From Syntrophales bacterium (GTDB lineage: Bacteria > Desulfobacterota > Syntrophia > Syntrophales > UBA4778), in contig JAQTPK010000003.1 in assembly GCA_028712885.1 (NCBI GenBank), forward strand, positions 11,129-75,128: a stretch of 64,000 bases of DNA, written 5' to 3'. Below, piece after piece: positions 1 to 15,829 of the stretch; position 1 is the stretch's first letter, and the number at the start of each line of letters is the position of its first letter. The notes under the pieces were generated by a model. That model was not told where the DNA came from and did not search any database. It saw nothing but the letters and a program-made list of their open reading frames with translations. The position numbers and the translations under genes were made by a program.

Positions 1-2349
1 GCCCGTTTTTTCTTGAGCTCTCGCGGTGGATTGCCCTCGCGACAAGTTCTTTTCCCACGCCGGTTTCCCCGAAAATCAATACCGTTGAATTGCTGTGGGC
101 AACCTTTTTGATAAGGCGATGCAAACTCAAAGCTAAATTGCTCTTGCCGATGATTTCACCGAACGCAAGGGATTCCTCTATTTCTTCAACGTAATAAAGA
201 TTTTCCTCCAGCAGCTTCTTATTTAAACGGGCTATTTCTTCATTGGCCTGAACCCGGTCGATAGCGACTGCGATCTGCGATGCAAACGCGGAGAGCAGCT
301 TGATTATATCCGGGCTCAGGTTGAGCGAAAAGAATCGGCTGTCCTGATAAAGGACCCCGATCACCCTGTCGCCCAGGTTGAGAGGTGTGATAATGGCCTG
401 GCGGAAATGAGGATGCTCCTGCTCCCCTATTTTGTACTGGAGTATTTTATAATCATGCGACTGCGCCACTGCGTGTATGTCCCGCATTGAGACATGAAAT
501 TTTTCGTCCTGGACGTCCTCATGCAGCAGGTTTCGCGAGGCCGCCAGTTTAAGCTCGGGCCCGTTCTGATCCTTTGTGAACAGGGCAGACCTCTCCGCGC
601 CGGTTATCTTGGATATGGACGTGATTATACTTGTCAGCAGCGACTCCAGGTTCTCCTGCCTCGAGAGGGCGTCTCCCAGTTCAATCACGAAATCAAAAAG
701 GTTACCGTCGGCGTTCCGCGTGTCAGGGGGAGCAAAGCGCTTCAGGTCGGCAGGAAAGCAGTTGGGGGCAATCGGATTGAAGAATTCGTGGGCTTTGAGG
801 GCATAATTCCCGGCCTTTTGCCAATCGTGTATTTGAACGTAATTCCTGGCAAGTTCGGTCCTGATTTTGGCCAGCTCGAAAGTTGCTCCCATCTGCTCGA
901 CAGTTTTTTCGAGCTCATGAAGAATGTTGAACTTCTCCGCAAGGGGTGTCTTGTCCTCGGGCAGGCCCAGCTGAAGGCGCTGTATCATCCCGTACATGAG
1001 CGGATTAACCCGGTCCTTGTCCAGTTTGGACAGGTAATCGAAAACGGGCCTCAGATTGATGGGCGAAACGCCTTTTGAATGCAGGATGTAGCCGGTATCC
1101 AGGAGAGAGTAAAAATTCAAAATATGATGCCAGCTTGATTTTTTTATCTTCCACATGATCTTGTAATGCTCAACCGCCGCATCGAGATTGCCTTCCTGGC
1201 ACTCGATGCTCGACAGCCCCATTCCGGCCAGAACCTCCACCATCGGCAGGTTTTCTTTCCCGGCCAATTCGAGTGCCCGTTCGAAAAAAAACCGGCTGTT
1301 GCTGAGCTGCCTGGTTTCAAGGAGTATCAGGCCTGCAGTTACAAGCGCATACGATAACAGGGGCAGGTTGGCGGTTTTTTCACACTGGTTCTGAATCGCT
1401 TCCGTTATGCCCAGCCCTCTCTGCGGCATGCCGACCTGGGTATACCCAAGGGCAATATTGAGAGAGACCAGGTGGGAGAAATCATTTTCGTTTGCCGGCT
1501 CAAGCTCACCCAGGGAATTTTCGTAGGCTTCAATGGCTTTGAAGAACTGACATTTTATCAGGTAAATAAGCCCTTGTCCTTTCAATCCCCTTTTCAGCAG
1601 TTCCTGGTCTTCAATCTGCCGGATAATGTCCCAGCCCAGGTTGAAATAATAAACCGCCTGTTCATAACGGAAATACATCCAGTCGTTCTGTCCCAGGAGA
1701 AGGTACAGCGATGCCTGCGATCTCAAATCGCCGATGAAACGAGCCCTCTCCAGGGCGACGGAAAGGAGATTGTTTGTCTTCTTTATGCTGGGATCGAACA
1801 GCGACAACGAAGTCCGGTGTTCGATCGCATTGACAAAAGTGAGCCAGGAACTCTCCGGAAGATCGCGATCCGCAGGACTGATGATCTTGCCGACAAAATC
1901 AAGGATGGAATCGTAAAGAATTATAGCAGAGGAGATCCTGTGATTGGCCTCCTCGTAATGAGCCGCCTTCAAGATTACGCCGAGGTCCCCTTCCTGCACC
2001 CCCGCCTTGACATACTGGCGGGCTACCGTCAGGGCGCCGGCGCTGTCGTCTGTCATGTTCCTGGCAAGGATGTCGGCAGAATCCCGGTAGTAAGCCGCAA
2101 GATCCTGCCGGGGTATTGCAGAGATTATTTCCTCTTTGGGAAATTTCTCGGACCAGCAATAGTAACCCGAATTCTCGCTGCTCGGCACGATCCACTGATT
2201 TCGCTCAAAAATCAAGATCACGGAAACCAGCCGGGAAGTCTTTATATCGGGGAACCAATCGACTGAAAATAACTCCGGGAAGCATGCAAGGGCAAATACG
2301 ATTCCCTTATCTTCCTCATTAAACTGTGAAAGGATTACTTCAATATCCA
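1..2349 (-). CDS. Sigma-54-dependent transcriptional activator (enhancer-binding protein), C-terminus cut by window edge; about 760 aa of TPR-like plus GAF sensory region precede the AAA+ domain
   Basis: Absent from the supplied ORF track (no stop inside window). Manual reverse translation from ATG 2349-2347 reads MDIEVILSQFNEEDKGIVFALACFPE... and stays open to base 1, ending ...FGEIIGKSNLALSLHRLIKKVAHSNSTVLIFGETGVGKELVARAIHRESSRKNG (sigma-54 interaction domain, Walker A GETGVGKE). Preceding segment ...GAERSALFTKDQNGPELKLAASRNL...GDRVIGVLYQDSRFFS... is GAF-like. Plus-strand ORFs 494-1078 and 1472-2266 are antisense shadows of it. Confidence 0.85.
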
Positions 2350-2569
2350 TGCTCCTCTCCCCAACAAAGTCTGGTGACCTATATATCAAAAACGGCCCCT
2401 GTAAACACCTGTTAAATATTCAACAGCAGTCAATGGATTGGGATAATGAATTCTTGCCGGAGCAGCGTTGTGTCAGAAACGGCCATAATTGACACCTGTC
2501 GAAGTGTAAACTCATGTTTTCCGATATCTTTGCCATTCATAAATAACTGAATTTACTCGCGAATACCCA

Positions 2570-2585
2570 TGGCATAATTATTGTA
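2570..2585 (+). promoter_or_regulatory. Candidate sigma-54 (-24/-12) promoter TGGCAT-N5-TTGT
   Basis: TGGCATaattaTTGTa about 36 nt upstream of ATG 2621, in the divergent region next to a sigma-54 activator gene. The -24 element is good; the -12 reads GT instead of the conserved GC, so the match is imperfect. Confidence 0.3.
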
Positions 2586-2620: not shown

Positions 2621-3847
2621 ATGAATGAAAGTGAAAACGATGTTGTTATCGTCAGCGCGGTCAGAACTCCGTTCGGGCGATTTGACGGCGTACTCAAGAC
2701 AACTCTCAGCATGGACCTGGGCGTTTTCGCCGTTAAAGAAGCAGTCCGCCGGATCAACCTGTCCCCGGCGCTGGTGGACGAGGTTTATTACGGTACATGC
2801 ATTCCTGCCGAGTATGCCATCTATACGAATGTACCCGCGCGGCAAATCACGCTCCTGGCAGGCTTTCCGGAAAGCAATATCTCCCTGACCATCGACCGCG
2901 CCTGCTGCTCGTCCATGACCGCTCTGCGCATGGGCTGGCGGGCCATCAAGTCGGGGGCCGCGGAAATCGTCATCGCCTGCGGAGCGGAGAACATGGGCAA
3001 TGTGCCCCTCATCGCCTCCGCCGCCAAGGCCCGCTGGGGCGTACGGCTGGGTCCCATAGAACTGGAGGATGTCCTTTTTGAGCTGGGCTACGGGCGCAAG
3101 GGATTTGCCCCGGTTGCGACAGATGCGGGCCACGTCGCCGTGGAATACGGCGTCGGCCGCGAAAAGCAGGACGAGTGGGCTCTTGCCAGCCACCTCAAAT
3201 ATCATGCAGCCTTCAAAGCTGGCAAGTTCAATGTCGGCGAGGAACTCATGAAGCTTGAGATTCCCCGGAAGAAGGCGCCCATCGTCCTGGAAAGGGACGA
3301 GTCCCCCCGGGACAACCTGACCATGGAAAAAATGGCGGCCCTGAAAGCCGTATACGGCAGCCCGACCGTGACCGCAGGCAATGCGCCCGGCCTTAATTCG
3401 GGCGCATCGGCAATAGTCATCATGTCCAGGAAGAAAGCGGATTCGCTGGGGCTGAAAGTCCTCGGGAAAATTGCGGCCTGTGAGTGCGGCGCCGGCGCAC
3501 CGAAATACATGGCCTGCGTCCCCGCCCAGACTATAGAAAAGATGTTTTCCAAAACCGGGCACACTATCGATGAAATGGACCTGATCGAAATAAACGAGGC
3601 GTTCGCCGCCGTCACCCTGGTCTCCCTGAAGATGCTGGCAAAAGATGATCCGGATAAGTGGAAGTCTCTTCAGGACAAGACAAACGTCAATGGCGGCGCC
3701 ATAGCGATCGGACACCCGGTGGGCGCCAGCGGCGCGCGCATCACCATGACCATGATGTACGAGCTCCTGCGCCGCGGGGGCGGACGGGGCGTGGCCGCCA
3801 TTTGCGGAGGCTTGTCCCAGGGTGAGGCGATCCTGATTGAAGTTTGA
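2621..3847 (+). CDS. Acetyl-CoA C-acyltransferase (canonical thiolase)
   Basis: ORF 2606-3847; ATG 2621 preferred (GGGGTGA upstream). VVIVSAVRTPFGRF N-terminus, nucleophile motif DRACCSSMTAL, NVNGGAIAIGHPVGASGARI and CGGLSQGEA give the complete thiolase Cys-His-Cys set. Confidence 0.9.
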   Translation: MNESENDVVIVSAVRTPFGRFDGVLKTTLSMDLGVFAVKEAVRRINLSPALVDEVYYGTCIPAEYAIYTNVPARQITLLAGFPESNISLTIDRACCSSMTALRMGWRAIKSGAAEIVIACGAENMGNVPLIASAAKARWGVRLGPIELEDVLFELGYGRKGFAPVATDAGHVAVEYGVGREKQDEWALASHLKYHAAFKAGKFNVGEELMKLEIPRKKAPIVLERDESPRDNLTMEKMAALKAVYGSPTVTAGNAPGLNSGASAIVIMSRKKADSLGLKVLGKIAACECGAGAPKYMACVPAQTIEKMFSKTGHTIDEMDLIEINEAFAAVTLVSLKMLAKDDPDKWKSLQDKTNVNGGAIAIGHPVGASGARITMTMMYELLRRGGGRGVAAICGGLSQGEAILIEV

Positions 3848-3869
3848 TCTGATCTGATTGGAGGACCAA

Positions 3870-4325
3870 ATGTCTGATTGGCGGAAAGATGTGGAACCGT
3901 TGACCCTGAAAGGTCAAATAGCCATCCCCTACACGTGGCATGTCGGGGATGTGGGGAGCAGGTTCCTGGCGGCCCTGCGGGACGAAAAGAAGATTCTGGG
4001 GAGCAGGTGTCCGGAGTGCGGGAAAGTGTTTGTTCCGGCAAGAAAAAATTGCGGCGCCTGCTTTGTGGACATAAGCGAATGGGTGGAATTAAAACCGGAG
4101 GGCGTAATCGAGGCCTATACAATCGTGCATTACAGTCATCCCATCCAGCCCGTGAAGCCTCCCTTTGCCTACGCCCTGATAAAACTGGACGGAGCGGATG
4201 TGGGATTTCTTCACTTGATAAAAAAGGACCTGGATAAACTGAAAAACGGTCTCAGGGTGAAGGCTGAATTCAGCGGAGAGCGCACCGGGAAAATCCTGGA
4301 TATCGACTCCTTCGAGCTGGTTTAA
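3870..4325 (+). CDS. DUF35 Zn-ribbon/OB-fold protein (BbsA-like thiolase partner)
   Basis: ORF 3858-4325; ATG 3870 follows GGAGGA. Four-Cys ribbon CPECGKVFVPARKNCGAC followed by an OB-fold-like C-terminal half; small size and position next to thiolase-fold genes. Confidence 0.8.
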   Translation: MSDWRKDVEPLTLKGQIAIPYTWHVGDVGSRFLAALRDEKKILGSRCPECGKVFVPARKNCGACFVDISEWVELKPEGVIEAYTIVHYSHPIQPVKPPFAYALIKLDGADVGFLHLIKKDLDKLKNGLRVKAEFSGERTGKILDIDSFELV

Positions 4326-4345
4326 ATCCAGGGGAGGTAATGCAA

Positions 4346-5488
4346 ATGGATAAAGCGGCAATCGTCGGCGTAGCGCAGACCAGATATGAAAGAAGGAAAA
4401 AGGACCAGATCTTCGCCGATATGGTTTTTGACGTGACCCGGGCGGCATTGGACGATGCGGGACTCACGATAAACGACATCGACAGCGTCGTAACCTGTTC
4501 CAATGATTTTTACGACGGGCGCACCATCTCCGGCATGGCCGTCGGAGATGCCGCGGGCGGCATGGACAAGAACATCTCCACCGTGTCCGGGGACGGCACA
4601 TTCGGCGCGTTTTACGGGCTCATGAGGGTCCTGTCCGGCTATAAGGCCACTATCGTTGTCGCCCATTATAAGGGCAGCGAGGGAGATGTGAAAATTACCA
4701 CGAACGGCATGTTTGATCCCATTTTCCATCGCTTCCTGGGCATAGAGGCTATTTCCGCGGCGGCCTTGCAGGCCAATGCGTATATGAATCTTTACGGCCT
4801 CACGGAAGAGCAGTTTGCCGAAGTTTCCGTCAAGAATCACGGTAATGCCTTGAACAACCCCTATGCCCAGCTGGCGATGAAAATCACCGTGGCGGACGTG
4901 ATGAATTCAAAAAAAATAGCGGATCCACTCAAGCTGTTTGACTGCTGCCCGATCAGCGACGGCGCCGCGGCGATCATCATCGCCGGCGAAGAAATTGCGG
5001 CCCGCTCAAAGAAGAAGCCGGTGTGGATCAAGGGCGTCGCCCACTGCTGTGAGTCGTATCTGCTTGGGGACAGGGACCTGGCAAAACCCGTGGCTCTCTC
5101 CGAAGCCGCCAGGAAGGCATATGCGATGGCCGGCATAAAGAACCCTCTCAGGGAAATTGACGTGGCGGAAATTCTCGAGGCCTTCAGCTACATGGAACCC
5201 CTGTGGCTCGAAGGATTGGGATTCTGCAAACCCGGAGAAGGCGCAACCCTGATCGGCAAAGGAGTCACCGGCATGGGCGGCAGACTTCCGGTCAACCCGT
5301 CCGGCGGCGCGCTCTCCGCCAATCCCATCCTGGTTGCCGGGCTGGCGAGGCTGATCGAAGCGACCCTCCAGGTGCGCGGAGAAGCGGGGGCGAGACAGGT
5401 GGACAAAGTAAATACGGCGCTTGCACAAGGCTTTAACGGCCCCTGCGGTCAGAGCCACTGCGTGTGGATCATCGGCGGGAAGAAGTGA
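4346..5488 (+). CDS. SCP-x-type thiolase-fold protein lacking the nucleophilic Cys
   Basis: ORF 4340-5488; second ATG (4346) has GGAGG 8 nt upstream. Family motifs LFDCCPISDGAAAIIIAG and LPVNPSGGALS are present. The nucleophile position reads ISTVSGDGTFGAF (no Cys) and the His motif position reads SANPILVAG (no His). Confidence 0.75.
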   Translation: MDKAAIVGVAQTRYERRKKDQIFADMVFDVTRAALDDAGLTINDIDSVVTCSNDFYDGRTISGMAVGDAAGGMDKNISTVSGDGTFGAFYGLMRVLSGYKATIVVAHYKGSEGDVKITTNGMFDPIFHRFLGIEAISAAALQANAYMNLYGLTEEQFAEVSVKNHGNALNNPYAQLAMKITVADVMNSKKIADPLKLFDCCPISDGAAAIIIAGEEIAARSKKKPVWIKGVAHCCESYLLGDRDLAKPVALSEAARKAYAMAGIKNPLREIDVAEILEAFSYMEPLWLEGLGFCKPGEGATLIGKGVTGMGGRLPVNPSGGALSANPILVAGLARLIEATLQVRGEAGARQVDKVNTALAQGFNGPCGQSHCVWIIGGKK

Positions 5489-5495
5489 GGTGAAT

Positions 5496-6656
5496 ATGGG
5501 AAGAAAAGTAGCCGTTGTAGGAACAGGGCAGACCTATCACAGGAGCCACAGGCCTGATGTAACCTCCCGGGAGATGATCCGCGAGGCGGTGACATCGGCC
5601 CTGGCCGATGCTGATTTGAAGATAAAGGACATCGATGCCGTAGTCATCGGCAACATGGACCATTTCGAGTCCATCAATTACGTGGACACATACAGCATTG
5701 AGGGATCCGGGGCTTTCATGAAGCCGATCATGAAGGTATCGACCGGCGGCACAACCGGCGCCACGGTTGCTATCGCTGCATATTATCACGCAGCCTCCGG
5801 GCTGTTTGACCGCGTGCTGGCCGTCGGATTTGAAAAGAACTCGGAAAGCGACACAACAGGGGCGATCATCACCTGTTCAGACCCGATCTGGGACCGCTTC
5901 TCATATTCCGGCGCAATCCCGAGCCTGGCGACAGAGGCGACCGCTTACATGGAACAGTACGGGGCCACCCAGGAAGACGCGGCTCTGGTGGGCGAGCGGG
6001 ACCGCAATCATGCACTCAATAACCCGTATGCCCACTTGCAGAGGCCCCTCACCGTAAAGGACATCATGGCTTCGCCGATGCTGGCCTATCCCATCAAGCT
6101 GGGCGACATTTGTCCCCGCAGCGACGGTGCGTGCGCCATGATACTGGCGGCGGACGGAATTGCTCAGAAGACCGCTTCCAGGCCGGCGTGGTTCAAAGCG
6201 GTATCCGTACGGCACACGTACACATGGTTCGGGGATTCAACAGATTATAATAAGGGATTGGTTTCCATGCAGCAGGCATCTCAGGAAGCATATGCCCGGG
6301 CAGGGATAAGGAGCCCGGTCGACGAACTCGACGTGGCCGAGCTCTACCTTCCGTATACCTGGGCCGGCCTCAAGTGGATAGAGGACCTGGGACTTTGCGG
6401 CCGCGGAGAGGCCGCAAGGTTCGTGGGCGACAAGAACACCCATATGGGCGGGAAGCTGCCGATCAATCCGTCGGGGGGTGTCATTTCCACCAACTGCATC
6501 GGCGCAACGGCGATGCTGCGGGTCGCGGAGGCAGCCATCCAGGTCATGGGAAAGGGCGGCAAGCGGCAGGTGCCCGAGGCGAAAAACGCTCTCGCCACCG
6601 GGTTCGGCGGCTGTTTCTGGACCGATGTTGTAATTTTAAGTTCCGAAAGACCATAG
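5496..6656 (+). CDS. SCP-x-type thiolase-fold protein lacking the nucleophilic Cys (second paralog)
   Basis: Track start 5421 is an in-frame extension overlapping the upstream gene; ATG 5496 sits 8 nt after the upstream stop. KLGDICPRSDGACAMILA and LPINPSGGVIS motifs are present. The nucleophile position reads MKVSTGGTTGATVA (no Cys) and the His position reads STNCIGATA. Confidence 0.75.
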   Translation: MGRKVAVVGTGQTYHRSHRPDVTSREMIREAVTSALADADLKIKDIDAVVIGNMDHFESINYVDTYSIEGSGAFMKPIMKVSTGGTTGATVAIAAYYHAASGLFDRVLAVGFEKNSESDTTGAIITCSDPIWDRFSYSGAIPSLATEATAYMEQYGATQEDAALVGERDRNHALNNPYAHLQRPLTVKDIMASPMLAYPIKLGDICPRSDGACAMILAADGIAQKTASRPAWFKAVSVRHTYTWFGDSTDYNKGLVSMQQASQEAYARAGIRSPVDELDVAELYLPYTWAGLKWIEDLGLCGRGEAARFVGDKNTHMGGKLPINPSGGVISTNCIGATAMLRVAEAAIQVMGKGGKRQVPEAKNALATGFGGCFWTDVVILSSERP

Positions 6657-6674
6657 GGAAAGGGGATCAGATTA

Positions 6675-7154
6675 ATGTCAGCGGATAATCAGAAACCAGA
6701 AAGGCTGGAAGCCACCTTCGCTTTTCCGATGCTGTACGAGTGGTCAATAGGTCTTTACGGAAGCAGGTTTTTCCAGGAGATCATGAACAACAAGCGCTTT
6801 ATCGGGATTAAATGCCCCGGCTGCGGCAAAATCTACGTGCCGCCACGCCGGGTTTGCGGCCCCTGCTTCAAGGAGTTGACGGAACTGGTGCCTCTTTCGG
6901 ATACAGGAGTCCTCACCGCCTTTTCAGTGGTGAATTACCCCTTTATCGATCCGAACACCGGTTCCCGAAGACCGATCCCGTATACTTACGGATACATTCA
7001 GCTTGACGGCGCCGACAATATTTTTTCTCACATCATCAACGAGACGGACCTCAGCAGGATAAAAGTCGGGATGAAGGTTCGGGCGGTATTCAAGGACAGG
7101 GCCGAGATGAAGGGCAATATCGAGGACATAAAATATTTTGAATTGATCAGGTGA
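6675..7154 (+). CDS. DUF35 Zn-ribbon/OB-fold protein (second copy)
   Basis: CPGCGKIYVPPRRVCGPC ribbon plus OB-fold-like C-terminus; 159 aa; follows the thiolase-fold pair after an 18-nt gap. Confidence 0.8.
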   Translation: MSADNQKPERLEATFAFPMLYEWSIGLYGSRFFQEIMNNKRFIGIKCPGCGKIYVPPRRVCGPCFKELTELVPLSDTGVLTAFSVVNYPFIDPNTGSRRPIPYTYGYIQLDGADNIFSHIINETDLSRIKVGMKVRAVFKDRAEMKGNIEDIKYFELIR

Positions 7155-7170
7155 AGCCGGGAGGACACGA

Positions 7171-8304
7171 ATGTATCAGGAATATTTCACTGAAGAGCAC
7201 AATATATTTCGCGAGAGCGTCAGAAAATTTGTGGAGAAGGAAATCAAACCCCATGTCGATGAATGGGAGGAGAAGGAAATTTTCGATATCGGGCTTTACA
7301 AGAAAGCCGGCGATGCAGGTTTCCTCGGGCTGGAATTCCCCGAGGAATACGGCGGGACCCCCTGCGACAAGCTGATGTTCGTCGTGTACGTTGAGGAACT
7401 GGTCCGCAGCGGCTCGCTGGGCGTGGCCATAGGCGTTTCCACTCACCACATTTCTACGCCGCACGTTTTCAAAATGGGCACCGAAGAGCAACGGCGGCGT
7501 TTCGTAGTCCCTGTCCTGAAGGGCGACAGAATATCAGCCCTCGGCGTTACGGAACCCAATGCCGGCTCGGACGTGGCCAACATAGCCACACGCGCCGTAC
7601 GCGAAGGGGACTGCTATATCGTGAACGGGGCCAAGACTTTTATCTCCAGCGGAACCCGGGCCAACTTCATCACCACGGCCGTGAGGACCGGCGGGCCTGG
7701 CCACAAGGGAATAAGTCTCCTTATTATCGAATCCGACAGCCCCGGGTTCAAGGTCGCCAAGAAGATCCGCAAAATGGGATGGCACGCTTCGGATACGGCG
7801 GAGCTGAGCTTTGAGGATTGCAGGGTCCCCGTTGCAAACCTCCTGGGGAAGGAAGGCGACGGCTTCAAGGGAATAATGATCAATTTTCAGAACGAGAGGC
7901 TCGAGCTCTCCGTTCATGCCCACATGGTTGCCCAGCTCGCGCTCGAGGAGTCGATAAAGTATGCCAAGTCCCGCGAGGCCTTCGGCAAGCCGATTTTCAA
8001 CCAGCAGGTCATTATGCACAAGCTGGTTGACATGGCCACCCTGGTCGAAATCGCCAGGGAGTATAATTACCGGGTCGCAGCCATGATGGACGCGAAAAAA
8101 AATGCAGTCAAGGAAGTATCGATGGCAAAGAACTTTGCGTGTCAGGCCTGCGACAAGGTCGTCTTCGACGCAGTCCAGATCCACGGCGGTTATGGATATG
8201 CGAAAGAATACCTCGTTGAAAGGCTCTACCGCGACTCGCGCGTCATCAGCATCGGCGGCGGGACCACGGAGGTCATGAAAAACGTAATCGCAAATTTTTT
8301 ATAA
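7171..8304 (+). CDS. Acyl-CoA dehydrogenase (IVD-like C-terminal motif)
   Basis: GVTEPNAGSDVANI, GGYGYAKEYLVERLYRDSRVISIGGGTTEVMKN; GGGAGGA SD before ATG 7171. GGG replaces the YEG catalytic-Glu triplet. Confidence 0.85.
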   Translation: MYQEYFTEEHNIFRESVRKFVEKEIKPHVDEWEEKEIFDIGLYKKAGDAGFLGLEFPEEYGGTPCDKLMFVVYVEELVRSGSLGVAIGVSTHHISTPHVFKMGTEEQRRRFVVPVLKGDRISALGVTEPNAGSDVANIATRAVREGDCYIVNGAKTFISSGTRANFITTAVRTGGPGHKGISLLIIESDSPGFKVAKKIRKMGWHASDTAELSFEDCRVPVANLLGKEGDGFKGIMINFQNERLELSVHAHMVAQLALEESIKYAKSREAFGKPIFNQQVIMHKLVDMATLVEIAREYNYRVAAMMDAKKNAVKEVSMAKNFACQACDKVVFDAVQIHGGYGYAKEYLVERLYRDSRVISIGGGTTEVMKNVIANFL

Positions 8305-8322
8305 AAAGAACGGAGCAAAAAC

Positions 8323-9726
8323 ATGGCGGAAAAAAAATATGACTTGATCGTTGTCGGCGCCGGCATCGCCGGTCTTGGAGTGGGAGCTATCGCGGCCAAG
8401 GAGGGAAAGCAGAAGGTCCTGGTGCTTGACCGCTTTCCCAAGGTCGGCGGCAGAATGATGAGCTATGAGGGCTATCCCGCCAAGGGGTGGCGGGTTGATA
8501 TCGGGCTGCACCTGGTGGAGCTGGGCGAACAGGCATCATGCACGGAGCTCAACGAGCGGGTCGGAAAGAAAATCGAATGGGGACCCTTCAGCAAGACGGT
8601 CGACATCTGGAACGGCGAAAAGTTCATGGACGTCGCGCAGCTGGTCCCGATGACCAGGGAAGAGAAGATCGCCTTCCGCGACCTGCTGGGAAAAATCGCG
8701 ATGCTGAGCGAAGCGGAAATAGAGGAATGGGACAACCGCTCCCTCGAGGAGTGGATGAATGAGAACGTGCCTCAGCCCGCGGTACGCGAGCTTTTGACCG
8801 ATCTGGGCATGATCATGACAACTATTCCCCACGCGATCGACATGGCGGCAGGCGAAGTCCTCTGGATCGCCAAGCACAACCTGCTCAAGGTCCGGCAGGC
8901 GCTGCAGGCCAGTTACCCGATTGACGGCATGGAAGGGATTACACGGGGCCTGGCGGAAGTCATCAGGGAGAACGGCGGGGAGATCAGGCTCAACTGCGAT
9001 GTCCAGGAAATCGTCATCAGGGACAAGAAAGCGGTGGGCGTGAGGGTACCCTCGATGAAGCACGTTTATCAGGAAGAATTTCGCATGTATGAAACGGAAT
9101 TCATCGCTGCCGACCGCGTCGTGTGCGCCCTGCCCATTTACAAACTGTCTCAGATAATCGATTTCAATCCCGGGACCAGCCCGCTTCCGCGGTGGTGGGT
9201 AAAGCGCATTGAGGACATCCAGCACGAGGTGACCGGATTGATCGGCTTCGTTTTCGGGACGAAAGAGCCCCTGATCGATCCGGAGAAGAAAGTTTTCTAC
9301 AGCGCCTTGAAACTCAAGCACAGCGGATTCCCCTTCCAGGCGTGCCCCGTTTCCAACTTCTCCCCGGACGTGGCGCCTGCGGGCAAGCAGCTCTTTCATA
9401 CCGATATAGTTGTGGAGCACGAGCAGGCCTCGGACAAGTTCGAGCGGGAGCGGCTTTTGGCGCTGATGTGGGAGGACATGAAAGAGATGTTCCCCGGCCT
9501 CGAGGAAAAGCTGGAATGGCGGCTTCCTTATTATGTGGACGGCTGCGACGGCCTGGCCCGCCAGCCGGGTCTGGTCGGAAATTTCAAGCCGGCGCTGCAG
9601 GCCCCCGGCATCCCCAACCTCTATTTCGCCGGCGACACTTATATCGGCAGGGGCCTGGCTATAAATGGCGCGGCCCAGAGCTCAATGAGGTGCGCGGACC
9701 TTATCCTGAGAGATTTGAAGAAATAG
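8323..9726 (+). CDS. FAD-dependent oxidoreductase, phytoene-desaturase (CrtI)/amine-oxidase fold
   Basis: N-terminal dinucleotide motif YDLIVVGAGIAGLGVGAIAAKEG...VLVLDR..KVGGR and C-terminal NLYFAGDTYIGRGLAINGAAQS, typical of the CrtI-like family; 467 aa. Confidence 0.7.
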   Translation: MAEKKYDLIVVGAGIAGLGVGAIAAKEGKQKVLVLDRFPKVGGRMMSYEGYPAKGWRVDIGLHLVELGEQASCTELNERVGKKIEWGPFSKTVDIWNGEKFMDVAQLVPMTREEKIAFRDLLGKIAMLSEAEIEEWDNRSLEEWMNENVPQPAVRELLTDLGMIMTTIPHAIDMAAGEVLWIAKHNLLKVRQALQASYPIDGMEGITRGLAEVIRENGGEIRLNCDVQEIVIRDKKAVGVRVPSMKHVYQEEFRMYETEFIAADRVVCALPIYKLSQIIDFNPGTSPLPRWWVKRIEDIQHEVTGLIGFVFGTKEPLIDPEKKVFYSALKLKHSGFPFQACPVSNFSPDVAPAGKQLFHTDIVVEHEQASDKFERERLLALMWEDMKEMFPGLEEKLEWRLPYYVDGCDGLARQPGLVGNFKPALQAPGIPNLYFAGDTYIGRGLAINGAAQSSMRCADLILRDLKK

Positions 9727-9814
9727 CCGGCAGGGAAGCGGGTAAACCGGGGTCCGGTATTATCTTGCCGGATCCCATAAAGATCAATCAGACAACCAGG
9801 GAGAGCATCCGAAC

Positions 9815-10669
9815 ATGATCAAGAAGCTCTGTGTTATAGGCGCGGGCACCATGGGTGCCGGCATCGCGCAGGTGGCCGTTGAAAAAGGCGTGAAGGTCGC
9901 AATCCGTGATATCGAGGACCGCTTTGTTGAAAAGGGATTGGGGACAATCCGCAATTTCCTGGGCAGGAAAGTGGAAAAAGGAAAGCTGTCGAAAGATGAG
10001 CACGACGCGATACTCGGAAGACTGAAGGGTACAACGAGCATGGAGGATGCAACCGCCGGCGCAGACATGGTAATCGAGGCGGTTGTCGAGGACATGACGC
10101 TGAAACAGAATGTTTTTGCCGAACTGGATAAGCTCTGCCCGCCGCAGGTGATCCTGGCCTCCAATACGTCGACGCTCAGCATTACAGAAATCGCTTCGGC
10201 GACAAAAAACCCCCAACGCGTCCTGGGCACGCATTTCTTCAGTCCCGTCCCGGTGATGAGGCTTGTGGAGGTAATCTCCGGAGACAAAACGGACGAAAAA
10301 GTTCTGAAATCCGCTCTGGATATCATGGCCGCTTTCGGCAAGACCCCCATCCGGGCCAAGGATGTTCCGGGATTTATCGTGAACCGTTTTCTGTGCCTGC
10401 TGTACAACGAGGCGGCAGACCAGATTTACAAAGGATATGCCGCGGCGCAGGACATCGACCTCGGCCTCAAACTGGGTTCCAATCATCCCATGGGTCCGAT
10501 CGAGATCATGGATATGGCCGGAGTTGATGTCGTCTATAACGCTCTGAAGGCGCTGTACGAGATGACGGGCGAGGAGAGATACAAACCATCTCCACTGTTT
10601 GAGCGGATGATCAGGGAAAACAGGCTCGGCAGGAAAACAGGCCGCGGATTTTACGACTACACGAAATAA
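9815..10669 (+). CDS. hbd: 3-hydroxyacyl-CoA (3-hydroxybutyryl-CoA) dehydrogenase
   Basis: KLCVIGAGTMGAGIAQV NAD motif, ILASNTSTLSITEIA, GTHFFSPVPVMRLVEVI, PGFIVNRFL; 284 aa. Confidence 0.9.
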   Translation: MIKKLCVIGAGTMGAGIAQVAVEKGVKVAIRDIEDRFVEKGLGTIRNFLGRKVEKGKLSKDEHDAILGRLKGTTSMEDATAGADMVIEAVVEDMTLKQNVFAELDKLCPPQVILASNTSTLSITEIASATKNPQRVLGTHFFSPVPVMRLVEVISGDKTDEKVLKSALDIMAAFGKTPIRAKDVPGFIVNRFLCLLYNEAADQIYKGYAAAQDIDLGLKLGSNHPMGPIEIMDMAGVDVVYNALKALYEMTGEERYKPSPLFERMIRENRLGRKTGRGFYDYTK

Positions 10670-10681
10670 GCGGAGAAAATA

Positions 10682-11827
10682 ATGGATTTCATTTTGAACG
10701 AAGACCAGAAAATGCTGCGGGACACGGTCCGGCGCATCGCCGGGGAGAAGTTCGCGCCCATTGCGGCGGAGATTGATGAAAAGGAGGTCTTCCCCTCCGA
10801 TTCAGTTTCAGTCCTGAGAGACAACGGCCTGCTGGGCATTCAGATACCCGAGGAATACGGCGGCGCGGGAGCTGGCATGCTGTCGATGGTTCTTGTCGTG
10901 GAAGAAGTCGCGCGTGTCTGCTGCTCCACGTCCGTCATCCTGACCACCCAGGCACTGGCCAGCGACCCCCTGCTTCTGGCAGGCACGGAAGAGCAGAAGA
11001 AAAATTTCCTTCGCCGGCTTGCGACGGGCGATTGCCTGGGCGCCTGCGGGATCACCGAACCGGGAGCCGGTTCCGATGTCTCCGGGATGAAAACAACCGC
11101 CAGGAAGGTGGACGGCGGGTATGTGCTGGACGGCGCCAAAATCTTTATCACCAACGGCGGCGAGGCCGAGATCGTGACGGTGCTGGCCTGCACGGACAGG
11201 GATAAAGGCAACCGCGGCATCAGCATGCTGATCCTGGATAAAGGCATGCCGGGTTTCACTGTCGGCAAGAAGGAACACAAAATGGGGCTCCATGGTTCGG
11301 ATACGCGCGAGCTCGTGTTTGATAACGTGTTTGTTCCGGCGGACAGGCTGCTGGGCCCCGAAGGGAGCGGCTTCCGCACTCTGATGACGACTTTCAATTT
11401 CACAAGGCCCGCCGTAGGCGGGCAGGCGCTTGGCCTGGCGCAGGGAGCGTTGGAGGCTTCAATCAGGTACGCCAGAGAGCGCGTGCAGTTCGGCAAGCCC
11501 CTTTCCTCGTTCCAGGGCATGCAGTGGATGCTCGCGGAGATGGCTCTTGGCGTGGAGACGGCGCGGTCCATCGTGTACCGGGCCGCCTCGATGATCGACA
11601 CCGAGCCGGAATCTCCGGAGCTCGCCAAAATAGCCTCCATGGCCAAGTGGTATGCGTCCGATGTCGCAATGAAGGTGACCACTGATGCAGTCCAGGTCTT
11701 CGGCGGCTACGGCTATGTCCGGGAATACCCCGTCGAGAGAATGATGCGCGACGCAAAGATCACCCAGATATATGAAGGAACCAACCAGATCCAGAGGACA
11801 ATCGTAGCGGGCCAGATACTGAGATAA
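10682..11827 (+). CDS. Acyl-CoA dehydrogenase, short-chain/butyryl-CoA type
   Basis: [14 protein letters not shown]; [33 protein letters not shown] with the canonical YEG catalytic Glu. Confidence 0.9.
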
Positions 11828-11889
11828 AGGGCGACGCCCGCGAGATAAAAGGAATCAGGCGTGTTGATCGTTGCTAAGGAGAACGAGCA

Positions 11890-13047
11890 ATGGATTTCAC
11901 ATTCAGCAATGAACAGAAAATATTTCGCGACACCATCTACCGCTTCTGCAGGGAAGAGGTCGCGCCTCTTTGCGAAGAATCCGACCGTAAAGGCGAGTTC
12001 AGTTTCGAGGTCTGGCGGAAGCTCGGCGGCATGGGGCTCCTGGGACTTCCCATACCGGAAACTTACGGGGGCGCCGGCGCTGATTTCATAACCTGCTGCA
12101 TTGCGGGCGAGGCCATGGGGCACGCCGGCGTAGACGGCGGCCATCTCCTGACCCTTGGCGCCCACAGCTATCTTTGCGCCGCCAATATCGTCGAACACGG
12201 TACGGAGGAGCAGAAGCAAAAATATCTTCCGGGCCTGGCGACGGGCGACGACATCGGCTGCATGTGCCTGACGGAACCGAGCTGCGGTTCGGATGCGGGA
12301 GCCCTGCTGACGGCGGCCGTGAGGAAAGGCGACAAATATATCCTTAACGGCTCCAAGACCTTCATCACCAATGCCCCGGTTGCCGGGGTATTCATTGTAT
12401 TCGCCACGCTCGACCGATCAACAAAGCACAAGGGAATAACTTGCTTCATCGTGGACCGTGACACACCCGGCCTGTCCACGGGTAATCCCATGCACAAGAT
12501 GGGCGTCAAGTGTTCGACTACCTCCGAGGTCTTTTTTGAGGACTGCGAGGTCCCCGCGGAGAACCTGCTTGGCGGCGAGGGGAACGGCTGGAATATAGCC
12601 CTGGGGGGAGTTGAGTGGGACCGCAGCACCCTGCTCTCCCCTTTCCTCGGGAACGCGATGTTCACGCTGGAGAGCTGCTCCCGTTATGCCAACGAGAGAC
12701 GGGCCTTCGGCCAGCCGATCGGGGAATTCCAGTCCATCCAGAACCGCATAGCCGATATGCGGGTCTATGTAGAAGCGGCAAGGCTGGCCATCTATCGGGT
12801 TGCGGCTTCCAAGGACAACGGAGCCAGACTCAACCCGCTGCTCGCCTCCGTCAACAAGATGTACGTGGGCGACAAGGGATTTGAGATGTGTTCCGCCGCC
12901 GTGGACCTCTTTGGCGGTTACGGTTACATCCACGAATACCCTGTGGAGCGCGGCATGAGAGATGCGAAACTGGGACAACTCGGCGGCGGAACATCCGATA
13001 TCATGCGCATGATCGTCGCCCGGGCTATGGTGGGGAGACAGAAATGA
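11890..13047 (+). CDS. Acyl-CoA dehydrogenase (IVD-like C-terminal motif)
   Basis: CLTEPSCGSDAGAL; FGGYGYIHEYPVERGMRDAKLGQLGGGTSDIMR; AAGGAGA SD. Confidence 0.85.
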   Translation: MDFTFSNEQKIFRDTIYRFCREEVAPLCEESDRKGEFSFEVWRKLGGMGLLGLPIPETYGGAGADFITCCIAGEAMGHAGVDGGHLLTLGAHSYLCAANIVEHGTEEQKQKYLPGLATGDDIGCMCLTEPSCGSDAGALLTAAVRKGDKYILNGSKTFITNAPVAGVFIVFATLDRSTKHKGITCFIVDRDTPGLSTGNPMHKMGVKCSTTSEVFFEDCEVPAENLLGGEGNGWNIALGGVEWDRSTLLSPFLGNAMFTLESCSRYANERRAFGQPIGEFQSIQNRIADMRVYVEAARLAIYRVAASKDNGARLNPLLASVNKMYVGDKGFEMCSAAVDLFGGYGYIHEYPVERGMRDAKLGQLGGGTSDIMRMIVARAMVGRQK

Positions 13048-14189
13048 TCGATTACGAATTGACCAGTGCGCAAAAGGAATTGCGGGAAAGGACAGCCCTC
13101 TTCTGTGCGTCTGAAATAGCGCCCTCGGCATCGGCGCTGGACAGCGCACCCCGGGACGAAGCAGGTCGCATCGTGCGGGAGGCCATTAAGAAGCTGGGAA
13201 AGGCCGGTTACCTCGATCTCCTTGTAAATGGAGATTTCGTGAGCCGGTGCGTTGCCGGCGAGGAGCTCGCCAGGAGCTGTCCTTCCACTTTCTTTTCCGC
13301 CATGTATTCCGGAACGTCATTCGGGTTGGCCATTAAATCATTCGGCAGCAGGGCCCAACAGGATCGTTATCTGCCGGGCATCATCTCCGGAGAGAGAATC
13401 GGCGCCCTGGCGTGTACGGAAGACAGCGCGGGCTCGGACCTCTCCTTGATTGAAACCAGGGCCGAACTCGGCGGCGATAAATGGATCCTGACCGGATCCA
13501 AGGACTTCGTGACCAACGCGCCTGTCGCCGATTTCTTCCTTGTATCGGCCTGGACGGACCGCGAGGCGGGTTGCGAAAAAGGCTTGTCGTTTTTCGTGGT
13601 GGACCGGGGGATATCCGGTTTTGATACTACGGAAACAGTGGAAACGATGGGCCTGCGCGGCGCCCCGGCGGCGGGCATCAGGCTTTCCCGCTGCAGCGTC
13701 CCCGCCGGAAATCTTCTGGGCAAAGCCGGGCAGGGTCATGCAATCCTGGGGTGCATCAACGAATGGCTGAAAATTTCCCTTTCGGCAATGTCCCTGGGAA
13801 TCGGAGTGGCTTGCATGGAGGTCTCGACAAGTTACAGCAAAAGCAGGAGCGCCTTCGGCAGGCCCATCGGCCTTTTCGAGGGCGTGGGGGCCAAGCTGGC
13901 AATCATGTTCACCAATAACGATCTGGGACGCATGCTTACCCTGAGGGCCGCCTGGAGCATGGACCGCAGGGAGGCGGAATCATCCGTGCTCGCCTCCTGC
14001 GCCAAGCTTTTCACTAGCGAATCCGCAAATAAGACAGCTGACCTGGCCATGCAGGTGCATGGCGGGCACGGTTATATTAAGGGAACTGCAATCGAGCGCC
14101 TGTACCGTGATGCGCGTTTTGCCGAGCTTGCGTGCGGGACTTCCGAGATGCAGCGGGCCTTTATCGCCCGTGACAGTTTGAACCGTTAA
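13044..14189 (+). CDS. Acyl-CoA dehydrogenase family protein (divergent)
   Basis: Track start 12888 is an overlap artefact; ATG 13044 overlaps the upstream stop (ATGA). ACTEDSAGSDLSLI; HGGHGYIKGTAIERLYRDARFAELACGTSEMQR (LAC replaces YEG). Confidence 0.8.
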   Translation: MIDYELTSAQKELRERTALFCASEIAPSASALDSAPRDEAGRIVREAIKKLGKAGYLDLLVNGDFVSRCVAGEELARSCPSTFFSAMYSGTSFGLAIKSFGSRAQQDRYLPGIISGERIGALACTEDSAGSDLSLIETRAELGGDKWILTGSKDFVTNAPVADFFLVSAWTDREAGCEKGLSFFVVDRGISGFDTTETVETMGLRGAPAAGIRLSRCSVPAGNLLGKAGQGHAILGCINEWLKISLSAMSLGIGVACMEVSTSYSKSRSAFGRPIGLFEGVGAKLAIMFTNNDLGRMLTLRAAWSMDRREAESSVLASCAKLFTSESANKTADLAMQVHGGHGYIKGTAIERLYRDARFAELACGTSEMQRAFIARDSLNR

Positions 14190-14239
14190 AAGGCCTGATT
14201 GATTGCAGCTGATTTTGATTCCAGGGAAGCGATATCAAA

Positions 14240-15025
14240 ATGAAAAGAGATTACGTGAATTATGAGGTCGAAGGACGTCTGGCCGTGGTGACTGTCGATA
14301 ATCCGCCGATGAATCCCTTGAGCAGACGGGTCATGCAGGAGCTGGGAGAAATATTTGATGAGATAGAATCCCGTACGGACATCGGCGTTGCCATAATTGC
14401 CGGAGGCGGGACAAAGGCCTTTGTCGCCGGGGCGGATATCAAAGGCTTCAAAGATTTCATAGGCAGCCGGGAAGCAGCCTTCGCGAGCTCGCGCGGGATG
14501 CAGGCCGTTTTTGCAAAAATTGAAAATTCCCGGGTTGTCGTGATTGCCGCCATTAACGGCCTGGCATTGGGCGGAGGCTGCGAGCTCGCGGCAGCCTGCG
14601 ACATCAGGATAGGCGGCGACAATATCGTAATCGGCGTACCCGAAGTAAAGCTCGGCCTCATCCCCGGGGCCGGCGGCACGCAGCGCCTGGCAAGACTGAT
14701 CGGAAAAGGACGAGCCAAGATGATGGTCTTAACCGGAGCTTTCTTCAATGCCGGGGACGCGGTCCGGATGGGCCTGCTGGACAAGGTTGTTCCGGCGGAA
14801 GACGTCCTTTCCGAGGCAAAGCAAATCGCCGCCGCTATTCTCGCCAATGCGCCGCTGGCGGTGGAGGCGGCAAAAAAGGCCATAAACCAGGGTATCGAAC
14901 TGGGCCTCGAGGACGGCATGCTGCTCGAGGCCGCATTGGAAAGTGATTTATTCGTGACAGAAGACTTGCAGGAGGGGGTGGGCGCCTTTATCGAGAAAAG
15001 AACTCCCTCTTTTCGGCGCAAATAA
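14240..15025 (+). CDS. Enoyl-CoA hydratase/isomerase (crotonase)
   Basis: FVAGADIKGF, LGGGCELAAACDIRI, PEVKLGLIPGAGGTQRL (both catalytic Glu positions present). Confidence 0.9.
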   Translation: MKRDYVNYEVEGRLAVVTVDNPPMNPLSRRVMQELGEIFDEIESRTDIGVAIIAGGGTKAFVAGADIKGFKDFIGSREAAFASSRGMQAVFAKIENSRVVVIAAINGLALGGGCELAAACDIRIGGDNIVIGVPEVKLGLIPGAGGTQRLARLIGKGRAKMMVLTGAFFNAGDAVRMGLLDKVVPAEDVLSEAKQIAAAILANAPLAVEAAKKAINQGIELGLEDGMLLEAALESDLFVTEDLQEGVGAFIEKRTPSFRRK

Positions 15026-15061
15026 AAACCCGCCACCCTTTATCTGAGGAGATACGCAGAA

Positions 15062-15829
15062 ATGACAGATGCAGATATTGTTCTTTATGAAAAGCAGGAC
15101 GCAATCGCCTTCCTGACAATAAATCGCCCGGAAGCAATGAACGCCCTCAACACGGAGGTCAACCTGAAGCTGATAGAATGCCTCGACAGGGCGGAAAACG
15201 AACAGGATATCAGGGTCATAATCCTGAAAGGCGCGGGAGACGCCGCCTTTATTGCGGGCGGCGATATAAAGGAGATGATCGATAAAGACGCCATGGGCGC
15301 CCGGAATTATGCCCTGGCCGCCAAGCGGGTCGTAGACAGGATATGGAACTTGAGCAAGCCGGTAATTGCCTCCATTCAAGGTTTCTGCCTGGGCGGCGGC
15401 CTTGAGTACGCAATGGCCTGCGATCTTCGGATAGCCTCGGACAAGGCCCGGTTCGGGCAGCCGGAAATAAACATCGGAATCATGCCGGGCAGCGCGGGGA
15501 CGCAGAGGCTTTCCCGCCTGATCGGAATCACCAAAGCGAAGGAGCTTTGTTTCACGGGCGACATGATCGGGGCGGCGGAAGCGCTCGATCTTGGCCTGAT
15601 CAATAAAGTCCACCCGGCGGATGCGCTTCTGGAGGAAACGATCGCGCTTGCGAAGAAGATCGCTTCCAAAAGCGCGCCGGCGCTCAGCTTGATGAAATCG
15701 GCCATCAACAAGGGAACCGGGATCGACCTCGAATCGGCCTCGCTTTTTGAGATTGATTGTTTCGGCCTGTGTTTCTCAACGGAGGAGCAAAAGCAGGCAA
15801 TGAACAGGTTTGTCAACAAGAAAAAATGA
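15062..15829 (+). CDS. Enoyl-CoA hydratase/isomerase (crotonase), second copy
   Basis: FIAGGDIKEM, CLGGGLEYAMACDLRIA, GQPEINIGIMPGSAGTQRL. Confidence 0.9.
   Translation: MTDADIVLYEKQDAIAFLTINRPEAMNALNTEVNLKLIECLDRAENEQDIRVIILKGAGDAAFIAGGDIKEMIDKDAMGARNYALAAKRVVDRIWNLSKPVIASIQGFCLGGGLEYAMACDLRIASDKARFGQPEINIGIMPGSAGTQRLSRLIGITKAKELCFTGDMIGAAEALDLGLINKVHPADALLEETIALAKKIASKSAPALSLMKSAINKGTGIDLESASLFEIDCFGLCFSTEEQKQAMNRFVNKKK

Follow-up and report, generated by a model that had tools for sequence, protein, structure and literature searches.

To our knowledge, the characterised members of the Cys-less, SCP-x-type thiolase-fold proteins that associate with DUF35 are Ltp2 and Sal only, both homodimeric and both acting on steroids. 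In Ltp2 Tyr294, which sits in a YDHF motif, serves as the base and Tyr344 as the acid. Sal uses Tyr302 together with Cys304 in a YDCY motif, and carries a Gly at the former nucleophile position, the backbone of which binds the beta-hydroxyl group of the substrate (PMC12329534). A second pair of genes, ltp3 and ltp4, is described as encoding aldol-lyases that act on sterol side chains branched at C24 (Wilbrink et al. 2012, as cited in PMC6593523). Here we analysed a stretch of 64,000 nucleotides from a Syntrophales bacterium (contig JAQTPK010000003.1), referred to as the window, in which two adjacent genes for thiolase-fold proteins, TL1 and TL2, are flanked by two DUF35 genes, DUFa and DUFb. 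The four genes sit in a beta-oxidation operon directly behind a thiolase gene, THL. The comparisons below indicate that DUFa-TL1-TL2-DUFb very probably forms a non-thiolytic, DUF35-bound thiolase-like complex related to Ltp3/Ltp4. The focal genes are as follows:

2621 to 3847, plus strand: THL, canonical thiolase (acetyl-CoA C-acyltransferase; Thiolase_N/C, TIGR01930)
3870 to 4325, plus strand: DUFa, DUF35 protein with a Cys4 zinc ribbon and OB fold, presumed partner of TL1 (zf-ChsH2 and OB_ChsH2_C)
4346 to 5488, plus strand: TL1, SCP-x-type thiolase-fold protein without the Cys and His (Thiolase_C_1, alignments)
5496 to 6656, plus strand: TL2, SCP-x-type thiolase-fold protein, probable catalytic subunit (Thiolase_C_1, alignments, invariance)
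6675 to 7154, plus strand: DUFb, second DUF35 protein, presumed partner of TL2 (zf-ChsH2 and OB_ChsH2_C)

An alternative ATG for TL1 lies at 4340, but most orthologs are 380 amino acids long. TL1 residue numbers count from 4340.

Catalytic positions of TL1 and TL2

TL1 and TL2 share 38.6% identity and both carry the Thiolase_C_1 domain of the SCP-x type. We mapped their catalytic positions by phmmer alignment to the SCP2-thiolase 6hsj, the archaeal thiolase 6esq, ST0096 (4yzo) and Ltp2 (6ok1), and those of TL1 additionally by hhalign profile alignment against the THL family. The hhalign comparison of the TL2 family with the THL family gave no usable global alignment (probability 14.7%), and the TL2 positions therefore rest on the phmmer alignments to PDB sequences. 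The position of the nucleophilic Cys, in the turn between N-beta3 and N-alpha3, is occupied by Ser83 in TL1 and Gly85 in TL2. The HDCF (NEAF) loop reads LEAF in TL1 and YLPY in TL2, and the GHP His is replaced by Asn in both proteins (ANP in TL1, TNC in TL2). As both the nucleophilic Cys and the thiolase His are missing, canonical thiolysis is excluded for TL1 and TL2 on the basis of these alignments. A Cys in the C-terminal loop is conserved in both proteins (CGQSHC in TL1, GFGGC in TL2), in a region where the hhalign register relative to the classical CxG Cys is unreliable.

THL scores 373 bits against TIGR01930 (cut-off 240) and has all of the motifs RACCSS, NEAF, GHPVGASG and CGGLSQG. DUFa and DUFb, which are 40% identical to one another, each match zf-ChsH2 and OB_ChsH2_C in Pfam and retain the CxxC...CxxC cysteines. 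A preliminary description of this DNA had taken THL to be a true thiolase with its full catalytic set, placed a DUF35 zinc-ribbon/OB protein at each end of the TL pair and called the pair itself Cys-less and His-less, and all three statements are borne out. The alignment to solved thiolases, for TL1 also to the THL family, served in addition as a check for a misplaced Cys or His, and puts Ser83, Gly85 and Asn at the positions in question. TL2 nevertheless keeps two candidate catalytic residues, Tyr284 at the position of the aldolase base and Cys334 at that of Ltp2 Tyr344.

The phmmer alignment of TL2 with Ltp2 equates Tyr284 with Tyr294, Cys334 with Tyr344 and Pro286 with the position held by His296 in Ltp2 and Cys304 in Sal. 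TL2 combines the base Tyr of the aldolases with a Sal-like Gly, and neither of the established acids is present. Set against the YDCY motif of Sal, the Tyr and the Gly match and the Cys304 position is Pro286. The window TL1 has Leu at the Tyr294 position and Pro at the Tyr344 position.

AlphaFold2 models show the thiolase fold for both proteins, with predicted template modelling scores of 0.87 for TL1 and 0.85 for TL2. Foldseek matched them at a template modelling (TM) score of ~0.8, including 6hrv, 7yvy and 6esq, to SCP2-thiolase, archaeal thiolase, Ltp2, Sal, BbsB, PhlC, TbSLP and ST0096. The most conserved loops fall below a predicted local distance difference test (pLDDT) value of 50, namely residues 57-61, 117-143, 197-207 and 330-334 of TL2 and 54-60 and 113-136 of TL1. 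This suggests that these invariant loops may become ordered only against a partner subunit, the DUF35 protein or the substrate.

To follow these positions across species we scanned 185,579 species representatives, which yielded 465 TL2 relatives. The best 80 provide the locus counts given here, with assessable loci as denominators. Across the 80 TL2 orthologs Gly85, Tyr284, Pro286, Asn333, His240 and the NMDHFE loop are invariant, as is EKNSESDTT through Asp119-Thr120, with Thr121 replaced by Ser once. The same five residues are invariant in 17 TL2 paralogs, where the two loops read NMEFFE and EKQEEGDT, and Tyr284 is accordingly unchanged in all 97 sequences. In the sequences examined the acidic motifs DxFE and EKxSES are confined to TL2-like proteins, and canonical thiolases have neither; these loops are alternative candidates for an acid in TL2. 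Cys334 is present in all 53 TL2 orthologs of at least 70% identity. In those of the more divergent orthologs that have Pro at residue 334, a Cys usually stands at 332; among the 27 most divergent sequences at least 10 read SCNPI and one reads SSNPI, with Cys at neither position. Residues 330-335 (6483-6500 of the window) read STNCI in most orthologs, and residue 127 (Cys or Ala) tends to covary with them. Cys334 was rejected as a universal catalytic acid, being absent from the actinobacterial PRK08313 family described below, from some orthologs and from some paralogs.

The corresponding site of TL1 varies. In 56 of 71 loci TL1 has Glu at the nucleophile position, YDAF for HDCF and a His in GHP. 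In the remaining 15 loci, comprising the window and its Syntrophales relatives, these positions read Ser, LE[PA]F and Asn, and in the paralogous protein TL1' they are Ala, GDEF and Val. The Ser found in the window is not conserved across TL1 orthologs. Within the window clade the changes from Glu to Ser, Tyr to Leu and His to Asn occurred together while TL2 stayed unchanged, giving a natural triple 'knock-out', and yet TL1 remains 80-89% identical within the Syntrophales. Because its active site drifts while the protein is constrained, TL1 behaves like an obligate structural partner; TL2, with its frozen site, behaves like the catalyst. As judged from these alignments, the window TL1 is probably a structural or degenerate partner in this lineage. 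The pair as a whole had initially been likened to the aldolases, but the window TL1, without the Glu/YDAF/His trio kept by 56 of the 71 orthologous modules, looks degenerate and unlike a second aldolase subunit.

The four-gene module and its actinobacterial counterparts

TL2 relatives were found in the Syntrophales, many Desulfobacterota, Spirochaetota/Leptospirales, Anaerolineae, some Bacillota and Desulfatibacillum alkenivorans DSM 16219. The closest genomes are Syntrophales metagenome-assembled genomes with a TL2 90% identical to ours, and a TL1 100% identical to that of the window is encoded on JGI contigs from the metagenome samples 3300010347, 3300009667 and 3300009664. The order DUFa-TL1-TL2-DUFb is essentially invariant in the best 80 loci. 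TL2 is accompanied by TL1 in 70 of 72 loci, by DUFa in 70 of 71 and by DUFb in 77 of 78, and the gap between TL1 and TL2 is mostly 9-12 nt. Since this gene order is conserved across phyla, the module is no chance arrangement. A thiolase adjoins it in 35 of 63 loci, where THL is 70-86% conserved, and the other 28 have no adjacent thiolase. An ortholog of the flavin adenine dinucleotide (FAD) oxidoreductase gene that lies further along the window operon occurs within 10 kb in 11 of 46 loci, and also in the compact Desulfatibacillum operon. With these counts the thiolase and the oxidoreductase are frequent associates outside the core of the module. Of the five-gene unit (thiolase, DUF35, TL, TL, DUF35) first proposed for this locus, the census therefore leaves a near-invariant core of four genes, with the thiolase adjacent in just over half of the loci assessed.

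Many loci hold a second, paralogous module, THL'-TL1'-TL2'-DUF-DUF, which is ~45% identical and lies beside genes for 3-hydroxyacyl-CoA dehydrogenase (HBD) and enoyl-CoA hydratase (ECH). It stands directly upstream of the orthologous module in loci L006, L012, L013, L016-L019, L036, L037, L039-L041, L085, L088 and L089, and is often preceded by TetR-HBD-ECH. A weakly similar flavoprotein follows the paralogous module in about a dozen loci (for example L088, L006 and L012). In L088 a CrtC-family (carotenoid 1,2-hydratase) lipocalin-domain protein precedes a second CrtI-like flavoprotein beside the paralogous module, and in related loci a MaoC hydratase is encoded two genes downstream. The MaoC and CrtC/CrtI-like neighbours might hint at branched or isoprenoid substrates, a hint of low weight because the MaoC and CrtC genes both lie outside the window. 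Downstream of DUFb in L085, L088 and L089 there are recurrent phosphoesterase-type genes (PP2C/SpoIIE-like, PHP, Metallophos), and in the same region a beta-keto acid cleavage enzyme (BKACE) and a 601-amino-acid FadE-like dehydrogenase. The D. alkenivorans DSM 16219 locus (L084, 5537-13974) encodes an acyl-CoA ligase, THL, DUFa, TL1, TL2, DUFb, a 247-amino-acid PP2C/SpoIIE-like protein and the FAD oxidoreductase, with sigma-54 and TetR regulators on either side. Its host is cultured and tractable for genetics.

A tblastn search against plasmids revealed actinobacterial loci with a related layout, in which an OB-fold protein of 309-339 amino acids is followed by a thiolase domain protein of ~355 and another of ~390 amino acids. 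The Tsukamurella OB-fold protein is a double DUF35, with two OB_ChsH2_C stretches in Pfam, and both halves of this protein and of its Streptomyces clavuligerus counterpart match DUFa and DUFb. In the actinobacterial fusions (L086, 6996-7925; L087, 6916-7935) the first DUF35 has no zinc-ribbon cysteines. The two thiolase-like proteins pass the NCBIfam cut-offs for PRK07937 ('lipid-transfer protein') and PRK08313. TL2 shares 39-42% identity with PRK08313 proteins. In 118 clusters of the latter the motifs read TAGSVG, YVPF, SSNPI, EKQSES and ADxFE, so that a signature of Gly, YxP[FY], Asn, EKxSES and DxFE is common to TL2 and this family. PRK07937 proteins resemble the TL1 type in the xDG nucleophile loop, in S-x-D-[FY] and in K-x-S, and they have Glu at the nucleophile position, as most TL1 orthologs do. 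TL2 scores 359 bits against PRK08313 (cut-off 514) and TL1 180 bits against PRK07937 (cut-off 419), which makes TL1 and TL2, by sequence, homologs of PRK07937 and PRK08313 that fall outside those subfamilies.

The Tsukamurella genes are surrounded by an F420-dependent LLM oxidoreductase, a crotonase, an acyl-CoA ligase, a P450 and a steroid thiolase, a context that agrees with the Mycobacterium tuberculosis gene list fadD19, echA19, cyp142, Rv3520c, Rv3521, ltp4 and ltp3. From this synteny, together with the name 'lipid-transfer protein' given to PRK07937 by NCBIfam, we infer that PRK08313 corresponds to Ltp3 and PRK07937 to Ltp4. The protein lengths also fit those of M. tuberculosis Ltp3 and Ltp4. 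With the Tsukamurella PRK08313 protein as query, all matches returned bore the name 'thiolase domain-containing protein', none of them explicitly Ltp3. Full-text literature searches turned up neither a paper on the module in anaerobes nor any biochemical or structural work on Ltp3/Ltp4, and a paper on limonene under methanogenic conditions had no bearing on the question. Judged by homology, the module is an anaerobe counterpart of the actinobacterial double-DUF35/Ltp4-like/Ltp3-like module. The arrangement had at first not been recognised, but it has a homologous precedent in the set double-DUF35/PRK07937/PRK08313, which is syntenic with Rv3521-ltp4-ltp3 and shares the motif set of TL2.

Operon context, proposed reaction and alternatives

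The plus strand from 2621 to 17251 forms a single closely spaced gene array, in which the five focal genes from THL to DUFb are 7-22 nt apart. The other features of the locus are:

1 to 2350, minus strand: 3' part of a divergent sigma-54 enhancer-binding activator (GAF, Sigma54_activat and HTH_8), truncated by the window start
2570 to 2585, plus strand: tentative -24/-12-like sigma-54 promoter, TGGCATAATTATTGTA, 36 nt before the THL start
7171 to 8304, plus strand: ACAD1, acyl-CoA dehydrogenase 1 (Pfam/NCBIfam), same operon
8323 to 9726, plus strand: FADox, amine-oxidase/CrtI-like FAD-dependent oxidoreductase (Amino_oxidase, E = 1e-30)
9815 to 10669, plus strand: HBD, 3-hydroxyacyl-CoA (3-hydroxybutyryl-CoA-type) dehydrogenase (Pfam/NCBIfam)
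10682 to 11827, 11890 to 13047 and ~13044 to 14189, plus strand: ACAD2-4, three further acyl-CoA dehydrogenases
14240 to 15025 and 15062 to 15829, plus strand: two crotonase-type enoyl-CoA hydratases (ECH)
15890 to 17251, plus strand: CoA-transferase of the acetyl-CoA hydrolase/transferase family (butyryl-CoA:acetate-like), final gene of the operon

FADox (8323-9726) has no close relative among solved structures. The start of ACAD4 is ambiguous within its open reading frame (12888-14189, plus strand): a GTG at 12888, which would overlap the end of ACAD3, is possible, and ~13044 suits the family length. Two genes on the minus strand, possibly linked to the operon, converge on its end, one encoding a 4-hydroxybutyryl-CoA dehydratase/HpaB-family protein (18261-19694) and the other a 294-amino-acid open reading frame without a Pfam match (17269-18153). 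Further on, between 17 and 64 kb, the window holds housekeeping, signalling and efflux genes, with no clue to the pathway. The activator begins with an ATG at 2349-2351 on the minus strand and is 1045 amino acids long in an identical JGI contig. Across the window the sigma-54 promoter pattern was found 3 times against 3.8 expected, so the match is not significant by itself, and its position beside the sigma-54 activator is the sole ground on which TGGCATAATTATTGTA appears plausible as a promoter. In Desulfatibacillum a PAS-type sigma-54 activator occupies the same position. Taken together, the GAF-type activator, TGGCATAATTATTGTA and the PAS-type activator suggest that the operon is probably induced by a specific small molecule.

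We infer a heteromeric assembly with TL2 as catalyst and the window TL1 as structural partner, which would use aldolase chemistry on a class of substrates that beta-oxidation does not handle. The proposal that the DUFa-TL1-TL2-DUFb complex is a non-thiolytic, retro-aldol-type C-C lyase with TL2 as its catalytic subunit is one we put forward tentatively, holding it at slightly below an even chance. In such a complex a TL1-TL2 heterodimer would be flanked by its cognate DUFa and DUFb, an alpha-beta-beta'-alpha' version of the alpha-beta-beta-alpha complexes of Ltp2 and Sal with DUF35. That the four parts belong to one complex is suggested, by Rosetta-stone reasoning, by the actinobacterial double-DUF35 fusion and by P0322, a natural fusion of 731 amino acids that joins a TL, a zinc ribbon and two OB folds (two DUF35 domains). 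The substrate would be a 3-hydroxyacyl-CoA made by the dehydrogenases and hydratases of the operon but unfit for the 3-hydroxyacyl-CoA dehydrogenase/thiolase route, for example a tertiary alcohol derived from a beta-branched enoyl-CoA, and the products a short acyl-CoA and a carbonyl compound. Tyr284 of TL2 may act as the base on the beta-hydroxyl; the substrate would be polarised by the backbone at Gly85 and Asn333, and the proton would come from Cys334 or the acidic EKNSES/DHFE loops. The window TL1, having lost the Glu/Tyr/His trio of its orthologs, would be mainly a structural partner. This retro-aldol model fits the locus because the operon has acyl-CoA dehydrogenases, hydratases, a 3-hydroxyacyl-CoA dehydrogenase and a thiolase. 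Propionate dismutation through a C6 intermediate, as in Smithella, was also considered as a function and set aside, the module being found in many non-Smithella phyla.

The Cys-less aldolases had been named as the closest precedents from the outset, and the base Tyr of Ltp2/Sal and the Sal-like Gly of TL2 agree with this. The same two residues support the original idea of a retro-aldolase-type lyase, but the second catalytic residue is gone, with Pro in place of Sal Cys304 and Cys in place of Ltp2 Tyr344. Several further observations weigh against a retro-aldol reaction. The aldol-lyase assignment of Ltp3/Ltp4 comes from genetics only. There is no Cys at Pro286, the counterpart of Sal Cys304, and residue 334, the counterpart of Ltp2 Tyr344, changes to Pro or Ala in some TL2 orthologs and paralogs and throughout PRK08313. 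Nor is the Tyr universal among TL2-like proteins across the 50%-identity clusters. The operon contains no enzyme for the disposal of an aldehyde or ketone and no carboxylase, and the surrounding dehydrogenases and hydratases look like generic short-chain beta-oxidation. Finally, the heterodimer is deduced rather than observed, and the most conserved loops are those with pLDDT values below 50.

Part of this evidence could also be read in favour of another enolate chemistry, such as decarboxylation of a malonyl-type or beta-keto-acyl-CoA, a hydrolytic retro-Claisen reaction with water as nucleophile, or an isomerisation or epimerisation, which would use the retained oxyanion-hole elements together with the new acidic loops. 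The aldolase acid residues are not conserved, the family-specific DxFE and EKxSES motifs suggest a rebuilt acid/base apparatus, and TbSLP, a relative that is likewise Cys-less, decarboxylates malonyl-CoA weakly (PMC12329534). However, Tyr284 lies exactly at the position of the aldolase base, the closest functionally assigned homologs are aldol-lyases and the operon has no carboxylase or mutase to make a malonyl-type substrate, and we consider such a reaction unlikely, if still worth keeping in view. It is also possible to imagine that neither protein is catalytic and that the assembly is a scaffold, or a substrate-binding or channelling device, for THL and the beta-oxidation enzymes. The archaeal thiolase/HMG-CoA synthase complex uses DUF35 as a scaffold, the module comes immediately after THL in 35 of 63 loci, with THL well conserved there, and the window TL1 has no candidate catalytic residue. 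What makes this improbable to us is that the active-site-equivalent loops of TL2 are its most conserved parts, invariant over more than 80 species, which would be atypical for a pure scaffold; moreover, 28 of the 63 loci do without an adjacent thiolase, and THL belongs to the classical thiolases, for which binding of DUF35 is not known.

Homodimers are found in all solved complexes of DUF35 with thiolase-fold proteins, each TL has a dedicated DUF35 paralog and most TL1 orthologs have a plausible catalytic trio of their own (Glu/YDAF/His), all of which would suit two independent enzymes, (DUFa-TL1)2 and (DUFb-TL2)2, catalysing separate reactions. Such independence sits less well with the near-absolute co-occurrence and adjacency of the genes at a spacing of 9-12 nt, with the actinobacterial proteins that join both DUF35 domains, and with the loss of the TL1 trio in Syntrophales under strong constraint on the protein, which suits an obligate partner; we rate it as having a small chance of being right. 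Smallest of all is the chance that TL1 and TL2 are genuine thiolases with a relocated Cys, either Cys334 or Cys373 of TL2 and the Cys of CGQSHC in TL1. Conserved Cys residues do occur in the His loop of TL2 and in both C-terminal loops, where classical thiolases carry the CxG Cys, but the nucleophile position is Gly or Ser, both His residues of SCP2-thiolase are gone, Cys334 is missing throughout PRK08313 and in some orthologs, and Cys373 of TL2 is Thr in the paralog.

A bolder variant of the retro-aldol proposal, which we regard as doubtful, is that the ancestral module was a two-site machine, in which TL1 (Glu/Tyr/His) and TL2 (Tyr/Asn and acidic loops) would catalyse consecutive steps in the removal of beta-branches in strict anaerobes. 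The direct retro-aldol cleavage of isoprenoid-like or branched acyl-CoAs that it envisages, with one activity lost from the Syntrophales version, is held with the same reserve. If true, it would bypass the ATP/biotin-dependent carboxylation of the Atu/Liu route or the C28 carboxylation of sitosterol, and would amount to a widespread, uncharacterised route of anaerobic branched-lipid degradation.

Relation to characterised thiolase-fold and DUF35 systems

Cys-less SCP-x-type proteins that pair with DUF35 make up a large radiation. An exhaustive phmmer scan with TL2 over 1.84 billion representatives, counted as 50%-identity clusters, returned 7375 clusters at E < 1e-3, of which 362 lie below 1e-30. 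Of the 109 top full-length representatives, 83 have no nucleophile Cys. The same 109 divide into 52 TL2-like proteins (Gly in place of the nucleophile Cys, in most cases Tyr, and [ST]NP), 31 TL1-like proteins (xDG, S-x-D-[FY]-x-D-G), 22 canonical ones (Cys, HDCF, GHP) and 6 outside these three classes. Pairs of TL and DUF35 genes also occur on haloarchaeal and betaproteobacterial plasmids. Public annotation calls these Cys-less proteins 'acetyl-CoA acetyltransferase' or 'thiolase family protein', which, given their active-site positions, is almost certainly wrong. The module represents a compact, conserved and presumably heteromeric version of such proteins in anaerobes of digesters and sediments (Syntrophales, Desulfobacterota, Spirochaetota and Anaerolineae), and ties to the Ltp3/Ltp4 step of phytosterol degradation. 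Its fixed TL2 site and the natural active-site 'knock-out' variants of TL1 offer a ready experimental design, and establishing the reaction would correct thousands of annotations and could show how anaerobes pass blocks in beta-oxidation.

Among the known systems, the best PDB sequence match of both TLs is ST0096 of Sulfolobus tokodaii (4yzo), which has Ser at the nucleophile position and HDMA for HDCF but, unlike TL1 and TL2, keeps the GHP His. The benzoylsuccinyl-CoA thiolase BbsAB and the archaeal thiolase/HMG-CoA synthase/DUF35 complex resemble the module in pairing an SCP-x-type fold with a stand-alone DUF35 zinc-ribbon/OB protein, yet they are true thiolases with their catalytic Cys and His. 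The TLs score 125-132 bits against the BbsB model NF053628 (cut-off 750) and 20-33 bits against NF053627 (cut-off 250), which places them outside BbsAB. Family scans found no HMG-CoA synthase in the operon, and with both TLs Cys-less the module also stands apart from the archaeal complex. In the PhlABC and MucABC acyltransferases two different thiolase-superfamily subunits, one of them non-catalytic, associate with DUF35, a parallel to the TL pair. There the partner is KAS III/HMGS-like rather than a second SCP-x paralog, PhlC keeps Cys88, and the reaction is C-acyl transfer on phenols.

Closer in its active site is Ltp2-ChsH2 (6ok1), a Cys-less SCP-x-type fold with DUF35 that Foldseek matched at E = 2e-27 and in which Tyr294 corresponds to TL2 Tyr284. 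Ltp2 is, however, a homodimer that acts on a steroid, with the acid Tyr344 where TL2 has Cys and His296 where TL2 has Pro, and the DUF35 bound to it is one domain within a MaoC hydratase. The Sal-Shy(DUF35) bile-acid aldolase (9myr) shares with TL2 the Gly at the nucleophile position, the Tyr base and the idea of a Tyr/Cys dyad. Its catalytic Cys304 lies in YDCY, where TL2 has Pro286, whereas the Cys of TL2 sits in a different loop, and Sal too is a homodimer. Sal has an alpha-beta-beta-alpha architecture with its DUF35 protein, and gene adjacency and fusions suggest a similar one for the module.

The closest relationship is with the Ltp3/Ltp4-type module, which on genetic evidence is needed to degrade C24-branched sterol side chains and has the same make-up of two adjacent, distinct Cys-less SCP-x paralogs and two DUF35 domains. 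The two differ in that two separate DUF35 genes flank the TL pair here, in place of one fused gene upstream, and in that TL2 has a Cys beside Asn333 and the window TL1 is without the Glu and His. The module here belongs to strict anaerobes and sits among genes of short/medium-chain beta-oxidation instead of sterol catabolism. On these comparisons the arrangement is not categorically new, and belongs with the poorly characterised Ltp3/Ltp4-type paired Cys-less proteins and their DUF35 domains.

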